Positions 17,359 through 30,468 of a stretch of 53,425 bases of DNA are shown in pieces. The notes beneath the pieces were generated by a model. The model was not told the origin of the DNA, did not search any database, and worked only from the letters and a program-made list of their open reading frames with translations. A program made the position numbers and the translations under genes. Origin of the DNA: Escherichia phage vB_EcoS-640R1. Positions within the stretch are counted from its first letter, which is position 1. Every line of letters starts with the position of its first letter. The stretch is taken from the sequence record ON470612. The stretch is one strand, 5' to 3'.

Positions 17359-17926
17359 TATCGCGCCCTCAACAATGAGTTTTGTGATGCGGTGCCTGGT
17401 GCCTCCAGGTGACGTTAACCAGTTAACAATTAACGCCGGATACAGAGAATCCACCCATAACACTGTTTTTGGTTTTAACTGTTCCGCGTGCGCTTAGCCG
17501 CATTCACCGCATCACAAAATTCACTTTAAAAAGGGCGGCAGAGCAGTCACGGAGTAAAACTGATACCGCCAAACGTCACCAGAAAATTGATAACAGAGGG
17601 CGTTGCAGTGGGGTTGTCACTTAAGCGTATGGTCAACCTGACAACCCGGTGTCCTCAACGGGGGAAGGAATAACCCCGCCATACTTACCGCCGCGCCATT
17701 TCGCGGATTGCCACAACCGGAAGCGCACGGTCGACGAAAATTTAACGACAGGCTATCTATGAACCAGCTACCTCGCCGTGCGCTTTCGCGTTATGGCCTG
17801 ACTTTTCAGGGAAATATCCTTTCAGTAAACTGTCAGTGCCGGATGCTCACCCGTGTCCGGCGCACGCACTCCACCTCACCCGTGGAGAACTCCTTAATTA
17901 CCAACCTTAGCTTCGTTGGTTATCTA

Positions 17927-23378: not shown

Positions 23379-23637
23379 ATACAGCGAACGCCATTGGTTT
23401 AGTTGGATATTTACTGTGCCGGACAAAAACGGTTTGCGGGGAAATCTTAGTTAAGTAGAATGACTGCGGGTGCTTGAGGCTATCTGTCTCAGGCATGAAC
23501 ACCAAAAGGCAGATAGAGAAAAGCCCCAGTTAACATTACGCGTCCTGCAAGACGCTTAACATTAATCTGAGGCTCAATCTATGAACGGCAAATCTAGGTT
23601 AGCCTCTTACGTGCCGAAAGGCAAGGAGAAGCAGGCT

Positions 23638-23793
23638 ATGAAGCAGCAAAAGGCGATGTTAATCGCCCTGATCGTCATCTGTTTAACCGTCATTGTGACG
23701 GCACTGGTAACGAGGAAAGACCTCTGCGAGGTACGAATCCGAACCGGCCAGACGGAGGTCGCTGTCTTCACAGCTTACGAACCTGAGGAGTAA
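23638..23793 (+). CDS. hokD: Hok/Gef-family type I toxin (HokD/RelF-like)
   Basis: MKQQKAMLIALIVICLTVIVTALVTRKDLCEVRIRTGQTEVAVFTAYEPEE: single TM plus conserved Cys/Tyr periplasmic tail typical of Hok; in-frame upstream extension from 23581; terminator downstream. Confidence 0.85.
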   Translation: MKQQKAMLIALIVICLTVIVTALVTRKDLCEVRIRTGQTEVAVFTAYEPEE

Positions 23794-26641: not shown

Positions 26642-26717
26642 GGCCCTTTAGCTCAGTGGTGAGAGCGAGCGACTCATAATCGCCAGGTCGCTGGTTCAAA
26701 TCCAGCAAGGGCCACCA
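26642..26717 (+). tRNA. tRNA with CAU anticodon (Met/Ile2-type, ileZ-like phage tRNA)
   Basis: 76 nt cloverleaf: 7-bp acceptor GGCCCTT/AAGGGCC, D-arm GCTC-AGTGGTGA-GAGC, anticodon loop CTCATAA, T-arm GCTGG-TTCAAAT-CCAGC, 3' CCA. Confidence 0.85.
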
Positions 26718-27054: not shown

Positions 27055-27258
27055 TGATGATTGTCTGGCTGCCGGAGAATTTGTTAAAAATTACATCGCA
27101 TGGTGAATCCCCCTCAGCGGCGGGGCATCTGGCAAAGTGTATGATCCAGAGAACATGCAAATTCAGTAGACAGGCTGAATTTACCGGGAGGCCCCTGGCA
27201 CCATGCGACAGACAGAAATTAGGCTATACTTCAGCCCCTCTCCGGAGGGGCTTTTCTG
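27055..27258 (+). ncRNA. Candidate structured RNA element, copy 1, ends in intrinsic terminator
   Basis: Shares conserved blocks with copy 2 (TTGTCTGGC..TTTGTTAAAAA..CGCATGGTGAATCCCCCT; GAATT(T/C)ACCGGGAGGC..GGCACCATGC; AGCCCCTCTCCGGAGGGGCT + T-run); alternative pairings of GCATGGTGAAT with ATT(T/C)ACC or CACCATG. Confidence 0.4.
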
Positions 27259-27445
27259 TGCAGGATGTGTCACAGTTTCCTGAATTCTGAGTACTGTCCT
27301 GTTACTCAGGGTGCTATATTTTCTGACGTGATGAAAGTCTGCCGGAAGGCGGAACGTATCGGAAATGACCCAGTAGAGAAAACGTTGACTCAGATACCGA
27401 TGCTGAGTTACCGGGAAACCGGCATCACATGACCGCTATCCTTCC

Positions 27446-27525: not shown

Positions 27526-27720
27526 ATTATTGTCTGGCCGGCGGGAAGTTTGTTAAAAAATTTCGCATGGTGAATCCCCCTGTGCGGAGGGGTAATCAGC
27601 GAGTAGGTATATGGGATAATCGCGGATTCAGGTGCTGGTACTGAATTCACCGGGAGGCACCCGGCACCATGCAATGGCACATAGCGCCACTCTCCAGCCC
27701 CTCTCCGGAGGGGCTGTTTA
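27526..27720 (+). ncRNA. Candidate structured RNA element, copy 2, ends in terminator-like hairpin
   Basis: Same conserved 5', 3' and hairpin blocks as copy 1, with a divergent central segment. Confidence 0.4.
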
Positions 27721-27750
27721 TATTGATTTTGTCAGATGTGAGTAAACTCC

Positions 27751-28086
27751 TTATGGACTTTGTTGTTTTAGTCCATAAGGACATATTTGCAGAATGCAAC
27801 GGTTATTAAAGCATTCATTCAATACGTTATCTGTATTTGTAGGGCATTCCTGGCTGTTTTTGATTAAATTCCAGAATGTTTTATTGAATGGTACTACGTT
27901 GTAAATGGTTACAGGTAGCACTTTGTTATTGAGCATGATACCTGTGTGAGTCAGTGTAAATATACTTTCAGGAGGTAAGAAAGCATCCGATTGATACCAG
28001 ATTATTAATTTTACTTTACTCCATATGACTGAAAAAGATATTCCGCATGATGGCTGGATAACTGTATCAATTACAATCCACTTCAT
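27751..28086 (-). CDS. Hypothetical 111-aa protein in AT-rich moron island (the slot where Stx phages carry stxAB)
   Basis: Track ORF with AAGGAAG Shine-Dalgarno 4 nt before ATG; surrounded by markedly AT-rich DNA (27720-28330); no recognisable family. Confidence 0.5.
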
Positions 28087-28346
28087 TTAGCTTCCTTGTT
28101 TATGCCTTGCTGGTGATGTTCTGAAAAGTATAAATGATATTTTTGAATATAAACCATAGAGCAGAATTATTTTTCTGATGTTGTTTATTGTTTATTTAAA
28201 TGCAGGGTGGTTTATATCTCGTCTTGTAGTTTATCCATGCATATCTGCTTGATGATCAGGTTTCTATTTAAGGTATGGTTTTGTGTTTTTTCTGTGTTAC
28301 ATGTCTGGTATTTTAAAGAATTATTTTTCAGATGGTGGAAAGAACC

Positions 28347-28535
28347 ATGGCATTTAAACACTATGATGTTGTCAGGGCGGCGCCGCCGTCAGATCTTGCG
28401 GAAAAGCTGACACATAAACTGAAAGAGGGCTGGCAGCCGTTTGGTAGTCCGGTGGCCATAACCCCTTATACCCTGATGCAGGCGATTGCAGCAGAAGGTG
28501 ATGTGGTGGTCAGTGGTGCAACTGAGCCGGAGTGA
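28347..28535 (+). CDS. DUF1737-like small protein, commonly found just upstream of lambdoid lysis cassettes
   Basis: MAFKHYDVVRAAPPSDLAEKLTHKLKEGWQPFGSPVAITPYTLMQAIAAEGDVVVSG...; internal start of track ORF 28332..28535. Confidence 0.65.
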   Translation: MAFKHYDVVRAAPPSDLAEKLTHKLKEGWQPFGSPVAITPYTLMQAIAAEGDVVVSGATEPE

Positions 28536-28691: not shown

Positions 28692-28842
28692 AAAAAGTGA
28701 GCCAGTCAAATGGAAGGTATCGTTAAACTCACCGGTAGTGTCAGTGGATCGTCTGAGACGCTTGCATGAGTTATCAGAGCCATCAGTAGTTAACTGGTGG
28801 CTTTTTTATTGTTGTCAGCTTCCGGATAACGGGAGACGGGGT

Positions 28843-29058
28843 ATGGACCAGATGGAAAAAATCACAACAGGTGTGTCATACACCACGTCAGCGGTGGGAA
28901 CGGGCTACTGGTTCCTGCAGTTGCTGGACAGGGTTTCCCCGTCTCAGTGGGCGGCAATAGGCGTGCTGGGGAGTCTGCTGTTTGGGCTGCTGACATATCT
29001 GACTAACCTGTATTTCAAAATCAGAGAGGACCGTCGTAAGGCGGCACGGGGAGAGTAA
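28843..29058 (+). CDS. Pinholin, phage 21 S-type, with dual-start motif
   Basis: [71 protein letters not shown]: two TM helices, Met1/Met4 dual start, charged C-tail; track ORF extends upstream from a GTG. Confidence 0.85.
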
Positions 29059-29062
29059 TTCA

Positions 29063-29413
29063 ATGACTCAAAACTATGAACTGATTGTGAAAGGGATCCG
29101 CAATTTTGAGAATAAAGTTACGGTAACTTTAGCGTTACGGGACAAAAAACGCTTTGACGGTGAAATTTTTGACCTGGACATCTCGCTGGACCGTGTTGAA
29201 GGTGCCGCGCTGGAGTTTTATGAGGCAGCAGCCAGAATGAGTATCAGACAGGTCTTCCTGGATGTTGCTGCCGGGTTATGTGAAGGGGATGAGCAGTCGC
29301 CGGAAAAGCGCCCCGTAATTTTAGAGGCGCAGAATGTATGGATAACCTACAAAGGAAAGCTACCGGGAAGAATTACTGGTTCTCTGAAGACTCCTCCGGA
29401 ATCACAACCTTAA
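29063..29413 (+). CDS. Hypothetical 116-aa protein inserted between holin and endolysin
   Basis: ATG after GGGGAGAG; occupies the whole S-R interval; no recognised family. Confidence 0.5.
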   Translation: MTQNYELIVKGIRNFENKVTVTLALRDKKRFDGEIFDLDISLDRVEGAALEFYEAAARMSIRQVFLDVAAGLCEGDEQSPEKRPVILEAQNVWITYKGKLPGRITGSLKTPPESQP

Positions 29414-29476
29414 GTCACTGACCGGAACAGATAAACCTGTCCGTGGGCAGAAACCGATAAATCCTGATAAATATCC

Positions 29477-30010
29477 ATGAACGCAAAAATCAGATACGGC
29501 CTGTCGGCTGCCGTTCTGGCACTGATTGCCGTCGGTGCGCCCGCGCCTGATATTCTCGACCAGTTTCTGGATGAAAAAGAAGGTAACCACACAACGGCAT
29601 ACCGCGATGGGTCCGGCATCTGGACCATCTGTCGGGGTGCCACGATGGTGGATGGAAAACCCGTTTTTCCCGGTATGAAACTGTCGAAGGAAAAATGCGA
29701 CCAGGTCAACGCCATTGAGCGTGATAAGGCGCTGGCATGGGTGGAGCGCAATATTAAAGTACTACTGACCGAACCACAAAAAGCGGGTATAGCGTCATTC
29801 TGTCCCTATAACATTGGCCCCGGTAAGTGTTTCCCGTCGACGTTTTATAAGCGGCTGAATGCCGGTGATCGTAAGGGCGCATGCGAGGCGATTCGCTGGT
29901 GGATAAAAGATGGTGGGCGCGATTGCCGCATACGTTCAAATAACTGCTATGGACAGGTTATTCGTCGTGACCAGGAAAGCGCATTAGCCTGTTGGGGGAT
30001 AGAGCAGTGA
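29477..30010 (+). CDS. SAR (signal-anchor-release) endolysin, lysozyme family
   Basis: N-terminal SAR domain ([18 protein letters not shown]) followed by a lysozyme E...D...T catalytic region ([22 protein letters not shown]); 177 aa. Confidence 0.88.
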
Positions 30011-30468
30011 GCAGAGTCGCCGCGATTATTTATGCTTTGGTTATCTGCATCATCGTCTGCCTGTCGTGGGCGGTCAATCATTACCGTGATAACGCCATCG
30101 CCTACAAAGAACAGCGTGATAAAAAAGTCAGTGAGCTGAAGCAGGCGATCGCCACTATCGCTGACATGCAGCAGCGTCAGCGTGATGTTGCTGCACTCGA
30201 TGCAAAGTACTCGAGAGAATTAGCCAATGCGAAAGCTGAAAATGAAACTCTGCGCGCTGATGTTGCCGCTGGTCGTCGTCGGTTGCACATCAAAGCAGTC
30301 TGTCAGTCAGTGCGTGAAGCCACCACCGCCTCCGGCGTGGATAATGCAACCAGCCCCCGACTGGCAGACACCGCTGAACGGGATTATTTCACCCTCAGAG
30401 AGAGGCTGATCACAATGCAAAAACAACTGGAAGGAACCCAGAAGTATATTAATGAGCAGTGCAGATAG
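30007..30468 (+). CDS. i-spanin Rz
   Basis: GTG start overlapping the endolysin stop; [39 protein letters not shown]... matches lambda Rz; track ORF begins at upstream TTG 29992. Confidence 0.85.
30227..30409 (+). CDS. o-spanin Rz1, embedded in Rz in the +1 frame
   Basis: [24 protein letters not shown]... lipobox VVGC and proline-rich PPPPPAW; 60 aa. Confidence 0.85.

Follow-up and report, generated by a model that had tools for sequence, protein, structure and literature searches.

In Escherichia coli K-12 MG1655, the lysis genes of the Qin cryptic prophage are arranged in the order essQ-ydfR-rrrQ-rzpQ/rzoQ, with ydfR (b1555, P76160) located 4 nt after the S21-type holin gene essQ and overlapping, by its stop codon, the start of rrrQ, which encodes a 177-aa lysozyme. 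The 103-aa product of ydfR belongs to the Pfam family DUF1327. The same S-ydfR-R order has been described in the Stx1 phage BP-4795, where the gene is ORF47, and is found in H-19B, YYZ-2008 and the equivalent Stx1a and Stx2c phages, the BP-4795-type ORFs being 114-116 aa long and separated from R by a spacer of ~50-63 nt. From the literature, no function could be retrieved for DUF1327 or for the S-R gene of H-19B and BP-4795, and the sole experiments on YdfR that we found concern the K-12 protein (Gopel et al., RNA Biol 2026; PMC13232886).

Here, we have analyzed a stretch of 53,425 nucleotides from Escherichia phage vB_EcoS-640R1 (record ON470612; the window), in which a sequence-only reading had pointed to a 116-aa ORF at positions 29063-29413, between the pinholin (S) and endolysin (R) genes, as an extra gene that could be a lysis regulator or a cargo co-expressed with lysis. 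The ORF list and the sequence confirm these coordinates. The gene order is the one of K-12 Qin, including the 4-nt junction between S and ydfR, while a 63-nt spacer replaces the overlap between ydfR and the lysozyme gene. We consider it likely that this ORF belongs to the YdfR/DUF1327 family and acts as an optional accessory late gene, i.e., a cargo, rather than a core component of the lysis machinery.

The lysis cassette of the window

The features of the cassette are collected in Table 1. The S-R interval measures 418 nt, of which 351 belong to the ydfR ORF; the latter starts 4 nt after the S stop and does not fill the whole interval as first proposed, since the spacer remains between its stop and the start of R. 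Regarding the ribosome-binding site that had been ascribed to ydfR as its own, a GGAG motif is indeed present 9 nt before the ATG, but it is embedded in the 3' end of S and serves R where ydfR is absent. The R leader (29454-29479 with the R start codon, ccGATAAATcctGATAAATatccATG) contains a tandem GATAAAT and is devoid of a Shine-Dalgarno sequence. The pinholin has possible dual starts, M1 and M4, and is named 'class II holin family protein' at an identical RefSeq locus. For the lysozyme, we infer the SAR designation from the hydrophobic N-terminal segment of its translation. Downstream (3') of Rz/Rz1 come a minus-strand gene for a bor/iss lipoprotein and, further on, HNH and terminase genes.

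Table 1. Features of the lysis cassette and of the ydfR-family gene, in positions of the window.
Feature	Position	Strand	Basis
S21-type class II holin (pinholin), 71 aa	28843..29058	+	PF04971 E 9e-33; PHROG holin families
Shine-Dalgarno GGAG within S 3' end	29050..29053	+	sequence; 9 nt 5' of ydfR ATG
ydfR-family gene (DUF1327)	29063..29413	+	ATG start, 116 aa; PF07041 E 5.3e-42
Conserved N-terminal domain, residues 1-72	29063..29278	+	AF2 model, identity to K-12, dN/dS
Variable C-terminal tail, residues 73-116, including module EKRPVILEAQNVWITYKGKLPGRITGSLKTPP	29279..29410	+	alignment, low pLDDT, dS contrast
Spacer between ydfR and R, 63 nt	29414..29476	+	sequence and junction alignment
AT-rich R leader without Shine-Dalgarno, final 23 nt of the spacer, ccGATAAATcctGATAAATatcc	29454-29476	+	junction alignment
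Lysozyme R, putative SAR-type N-terminus, 177 aa	29477..30010	+	PF00959 E 1.5e-23
Rz i-spanin	30007..30468	+	PF03245 E 9e-50; start per identical RefSeq locus ('lysis protein')
Rz1 o-spanin, embedded in Rz	30227-30409	+	PF06085 E 2.8e-20

By megablast, genes 100% identical to the ydfR of the window were found in many complete E. coli genomes, under the name 'YdfR family protein'; of the 5426 complete genomes of this species, 4314 contain related DNA. In strain M217, the whole neighborhood runs collinear with the window, all positions being shifted by the same amount, and is annotated, in this order, as class II holin, YdfR family protein, lysozyme, lysis protein and Iss. Given these RefSeq names, the collinearity with M217 and the same order in K-12 Qin, the gene and its arrangement are already known and named, with annotations in thousands of E. 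coli genomes, K-12 among them.

Several other features were observed in this prophage. Upstream of the holin gene, a 12-bp hairpin followed by a T-run (28776-28804, +), ~40 nt 5' of the holin start, looks like a late-operon terminator that Q-modified polymerase would read through; the same hairpin/T-run element is located 5' of S in phage Evi (L104, 1715-1743). A 67-aa DUF1737 ORF (28332-28535, +; PF08410, E 4e-17) also lies 5' of the holin, its counterpart in strain M217 being flagged as partial by PGAP. Further upstream, a 111-aa ORF on the minus strand (27751-28086) has as its M217 RefSeq counterpart the 'anti-adapter protein IraM'; this IraM-type ORF is a lysogeny-oriented cargo gene 5' of the lysis genes. 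The sRNA STnc100 (Rfam RF02076) is present twice in full length 5' of the lysis cassette and 3' of the Q antiterminator/tRNA region, at 27068-27261 and 27537-27725 (+), with 138 and 132 bits, and each copy ends at a terminator-like hairpin. Downstream of Q, a tRNA with anticodon CAT (26642-26717, +) is called tRNA-Met by ARAGORN and tRNA-Ile by RefSeq in the collinear locus, which suggests a phage-carried, lysidine-modified tRNA-Ile2. Finally, gathering-level Rfam matches were obtained for the sok antitoxin RNA of a hok/sok module (23468-23643, +) and for the DicF antisense RNA (17533-17584, -).

Family assignment and protein architecture

The ORF had been described as having no recognisable family. 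The homology and HMM searches suggested at the same time nevertheless identified a named one, YdfR/DUF1327. Indeed, the protein matches PF07041 with 142.4 bits for a gathering cut-off of 25, over profile positions 1-92 of 93, and also matches PHROGs 406, 2091 and 1085. All the core residues of DUF1327 are present (Y5-E6-L7, V9-K10, R44, E46-G47 and L50-E51-F52-Y53-E54); these columns are invariant among Escherichia-type members, and Y53-E54 alone stays invariant once distant members are included. As in other Escherichia-type loci, an S21-type holin gene directly precedes ydfR and the gene of a 177-aa lysozyme follows. Judged from its sequence, the predicted protein passes each sequence and position test for YdfR/DUF1327. 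Beyond this family, no match was found in an NCBIfam scan of the window protein, in a PDB sequence search with the family profile (E <= 10) or in a Foldseek search of BFVD (E <= 0.001), and no defence family was returned by PADLOC (E <= 1), whether the query was the window protein, a standalone homologue or a 176-aa form.

The window protein and K-12 YdfR share 81% identity over residues 1-72 (58/72), and from about residue 71 onwards their tails are unrelated. With an alignment of 33 sequences, AlphaFold2 modeled residues 1-76 at a pLDDT of 90.9, as a three-stranded antiparallel sheet (residues 5-14, 18-27 and 33-43) packed against a long helix (50-71), and residues 73-116 at a pLDDT below 50. 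This tail is swapped for other modules in K-12 and in forms of 169-287 aa, which carry coiled-coil-like and further C-terminal modules and in which a Pfam scan detected no additional domains. In agreement with the initial description of the protein as not membrane-like, the highest Kyte-Doolittle mean over 19 residues is 1.03 and the pI is 5.2, with no signal sequence and no hydrophobic segment visible in the translation. Window YdfR is thus predicted to be a soluble acidic protein composed of a conserved beta-beta-beta-alpha domain under purifying selection and of a swappable tail.

The two parts of the protein have distinct histories. BP-4795 ORF47, whose C-terminal module is shared with the window protein, is 63% identical to it overall, the tail being nearly the same and the N-domain a deeply diverged allele. 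Over the N-terminal 76 codons, dS is 1.5, i.e., saturated, in comparison with BP-4795 and phage 86, and dN/dS is 0.26 for the BP-4795 allele; over tail codons 77-112, dS is 0.15-0.23 in comparison with the same two phages. Such a contrast indicates a recombination breakpoint between the two parts and implies that the tail was recently exchanged between deeply diverged N-domain alleles.

An optional gene at the S-R junction

Among phage records searched by tblastn, 426 encode this pinholin type and 100 encode YdfR; roughly three quarters of the records with the pinholin are therefore without ydfR, if the YdfR set is assumed to lie within the pinholin set, the two counts being compared as totals and not record by record. 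The description of ydfR as an extra gene relative to the canonical, contiguous S21-type cassettes is borne out by phages without it: in VT2phi_272, S and R are separated by a 4-nt gap, and in 2G7b and phi467 R begins at the S stop or right behind it. Among the cassettes without ydfR are some whose S is near-identical and whose R is closely similar. When the VT2phi_272 cassette was aligned with those of BP-4795 and K-12, the ATG of ydfR fell where R otherwise has its own (…GGGGAGAGTAAnnnnATG), so that ydfR is read from the S-embedded Shine-Dalgarno that would else serve R. On the other side, the AT-rich R leader ccGATAAATcctGATAAATatcc is conserved in the other ydfR-bearing cassettes examined, with one base differing in BP-4795, except for the overlap type of K-12 and mEp460. 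In cassettes bearing this leader, R begins with MN(A/T)KI (MNANI in Evi), and with MSRKL in VT2phi_272. These differences in the leader and in the N-terminus of R place the right-hand recombination junction within the first codons of R.

The survey of S-R intervals that the sequence-only reading had called for was carried out on 97 loci with ydfR and showed that the distance from this gene to R is variable. The gap between S and ydfR is 3-4 nt in all 97 loci. The distance from ydfR to R falls into classes of -4 (the overlap of K-12 and mEp460), 28, 50-63 or 319-511 nt, the last holding, in most cases, a reverse-strand ORF of 69-127 aa. Of the 97 loci, 72 have the form present in the window (116 aa, 4 nt before and 63 nt after), close relatives being overrepresented in this sample. 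Every Escherichia copy examined is within the lysis cassette and tightly coupled to S. An Rfam scan revealed no RNA family in the S-R interval, and simple scans, which have limited power, found no promoter- or terminator-like site flanking ydfR. The S-R junction appears to be a cargo and recombination hotspot of Escherichia lambdoid prophages.

The gene is hence common but optional, and not a standard conserved component of the cassette with an established function. As for the features expected of a core lysis component, ydfR is missing from a part of the cassettes and its product has no transmembrane domain, SAR domain, signal peptide or lipobox. The 'morons' of lambdoid phages, such as bor/iss and lom, are an established concept of Hendrix and colleagues. 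Like ydfR, they are present or absent at a fixed junction between collinear phages and are unrelated to the function of the flanking genes. However, a classical moron is flanked by a promoter and a terminator of its own and is active in the lysogen, whereas ydfR has the orientation of the late operon and an S-embedded Shine-Dalgarno. With no promoter or terminator of its own found, ydfR is not a classical autonomous moron.

Distant relatives and convergent genes

The DUF1327 family is small and confined to Enterobacteriaceae: it counts 319 clusters at 90% identity and, in a set of 1.84 billion proteins, 89 representatives at 50% identity. In 185,579 species genomes, loci were found in Escherichia and Shigella only, in addition to two MAG-labelled contigs that are probably E. 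coli contamination; locus searches with single-protein queries returned 0-1 loci. By profile search, standalone proteins of 72-86 aa, named in Citrobacter, Enterobacter and Cronobacter, were found to align to residues 1-72 with 25-50% identity. Their genes are located after the tape-measure gene, between tail genes M/L or L/K, after gpI or upstream of HNH/terminase genes, and none of them is in a lysis cassette in the 8 distinct contexts inspected (L090, L091-L099, L109-L115).

In each of these 8 contexts, the standalone DUF1327 gene is followed, after 5-42 nt, by a convergent gene coding for 79-182 aa, those of L090, L091 and L098 forming one family, phrog_10490. A similar forward/reverse layout exists inside the S-R interval of phages Evi, 86 and PhiR12_2. 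A single family of reverse-strand partners was considered and rejected, the reverse genes of these three phages being unrelated, by blastp and hhalign, to each other or to phrog_10490. A Pfam scan of the reverse-strand partner genes gave no domains, and tblastn found no partner homologue in the window or in E. coli loci. In simple scans, no promoters were found for the reverse genes, and a terminator was found near the reverse gene in phage Evi only.

A probable late cargo and its possible target

According to the mechanism that we favor, ydfR would be carried by the Q-dependent late transcript and translated from the Shine-Dalgarno embedded in S, and its product would be a late-expressed, cytoplasmic cargo acting outside the holin/endolysin/spanin machinery. 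This proposal is based on the late-operon orientation of the gene, the solubility of the protein, the absence of ydfR from about three quarters of the pinholin records and the existence of relatives outside lysis cassettes. Two observations speak against a cargo: Escherichia copies are always in the cassette and coupled to S, and in K-12 ydfR overlaps R. Of the two roles initially envisaged, the cargo co-expressed with lysis is thus the one supported by the comparative evidence, while the lysis regulator is disfavored by the distant homologues found outside cassettes.

Phages encode RNase E modulators, among which T4 Srd, T7 gp0.7 and phiKZ Dip, and the target proposed for YdfR, another small phage protein, would likewise be host RNase E. 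Srd is reported to bind the N-terminal catalytic half of the enzyme, as is K-12 YdfR. With RNase G as bait, a bacterial two-hybrid screen recovered residues 1-72 of K-12 YdfR three times, and two-hybrid signals were obtained with RNase E, Rne(1-597), the full-length protein interacting with a single Rne construct (PMC13232886). In addition, Strep-YdfR co-purified Rne(1-598)-FLAG together with DNase-resistant nucleic acid, an RNA that, according to the authors, might have come from a contaminant (PMC13232886). Overexpression of YdfR barely changed the transcriptome and left growth unaffected, and the K-12 gene is essentially silent in standard culture (PMC13232886).

Since the identity between the window protein and the K-12 protein reaches 81% over the interacting residues 1-72, the target of the former might be RNA and/or host RNase E, in its catalytic N-terminal half, and the protein would serve the phage to adjust RNA turnover at a late stage of infection. 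We propose this mechanism, borrowed from the K-12 orthologue, tentatively and as rather doubtful. Indeed, the overexpression, two-hybrid and co-purification data all concern the K-12 protein, and the window protein, acidic with a pI of 5.2, is not a typical RNA binder. It has no similarity, in sequence or fold, to the RNase E regulators RraA, RraB, T4 Srd and phiKZ Dip.

Alternative explanations

Extra small genes regulating the SAR endolysin are reportedly present in the lysis cassette of phage Mu, and P1 LydB is a further regulator encoded by an additional cassette gene. Like ydfR, these small genes are inserted inside SAR-endolysin cassettes. YdfR could regulate lysis timing, either by binding the cytoplasmic C-terminal tail of the pinholin or by controlling the translation of the Shine-Dalgarno-less R, and would thereby set the time at which the SAR endolysin is released. 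The genomic position invites such a role: Escherichia ydfR is always between S and R, beginning 3-4 nt past the end of S; in K-12 and mEp460, its stop codon runs into the start of R; and R is without a Shine-Dalgarno in ydfR-bearing cassettes, where the AT-rich leader and its tandem GATAAAT are conserved. However, about three quarters of the phage records with the same pinholin do without ydfR, among them cassettes whose S is near-identical and whose R is closely similar, and in Evi, 86 and PhiR12_2 a reverse-strand gene stands between ydfR and R, which indicates that the coupling to R is not conserved. Moreover, the Mu-type and LydB regulators reside in the membrane or have the holin as their target, unlike YdfR, which has no membrane or hydrophobic segment and has distant domain homologues outside lysis cassettes, in tail and terminase regions.

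Experimental data on the K-12 gene could also be read in favor of such a regulator, as K-12 YdfR may bind RNA (PMC13232886) and the Keio ydfR mutant was scored among the hits of a screen for envelope integrity, or leakiness (Paradis-Bleau et al., 2014, supplementary tables), a screen to which the RNA Biol article refers. We suspect, though, that this mutant phenotype could be polar, through read-through from the kan cassette into the SAR endolysin gene rrrQ. On balance, a regulator of lysis timing is an unlikely explanation for YdfR, and we retain a late cargo as the preferred one.

YdfR could, alternatively, be the late-strand half of a mobile two-gene module made of a forward DUF1327 gene and of a small convergent gene expressed by the prophage. 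The window would then have lost the partner, and the original role of the orphan, e.g., neutralizing this partner during lytic growth, may no longer apply. The convergent gene found in 8/8 standalone contexts, several times from phrog_10490, and the forward/reverse layout kept in the S-R interval of Evi, 86 and PhiR12_2 are what such a module would produce, and the absence of any partner homologue in the window is what its loss would leave. Nevertheless, the reverse genes of the E. coli phages are mutually unrelated, which fits a cargo hotspot beside DUF1327 better than a fixed partnership, and the partner-less 116-aa form is the commonest one (72/97 loci, in a biased sample) and is under purifying selection. 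With, in addition, no PADLOC match and no reverse-gene promoters in simple scans, we regard this explanation as improbable.

A more speculative scenario, to which we give little credence, combines several of these elements: the 72-residue DUF1327 domain would be a new small late phage effector that docks on RNA or on host RNase E, at its catalytic half, moves between late-operon sites of enterobacterial prophages as a forward/reverse pair and may counteract a prophage-expressed partner during lytic growth, the Escherichia module having settled in the S-R junction and its partner having been lost in many phages, including this one.

Finally, that the ORF is a chance or decaying frame without protein product is effectively excluded, since the almost nil RNA-seq reads of K-12 ydfR in standard growth (PMC13232886) correspond to the silence expected of a late gene in a lysogen and the low-confidence prediction of the C-terminal 44 residues is outweighed by the strong Pfam and PHROG matches, the hundreds of homologues, the dN/dS of 0.26 at saturated dS, the confident fold and the well-spaced Shine-Dalgarno. 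The ydfR of the window is a genuine gene.

Concluding remarks

In itself, the identification of this gene matters little, gene and position being already annotated in thousands of E. coli genomes. It is nonetheless worth considering where the gene resides. YdfR is encoded by one of the commonest E. coli prophage genes, in the cassette whose timing of lysis also sets the release of toxin. Among Shiga toxin-converting phages, the presence of YdfR follows the phage type: with classes taken from record names and not cross-checked record by record, YdfR and the pinholin are found in 41 and 47 Stx1a-converting records, in 15 and 17 Stx2c-converting records and in 2 and 124 Stx2a-converting records, respectively. 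If YdfR modulates RNase E or lysis timing, burst size and the release of Shiga toxin could change. The S-R junction is, moreover, a potential source to be mined for small prophage genes.
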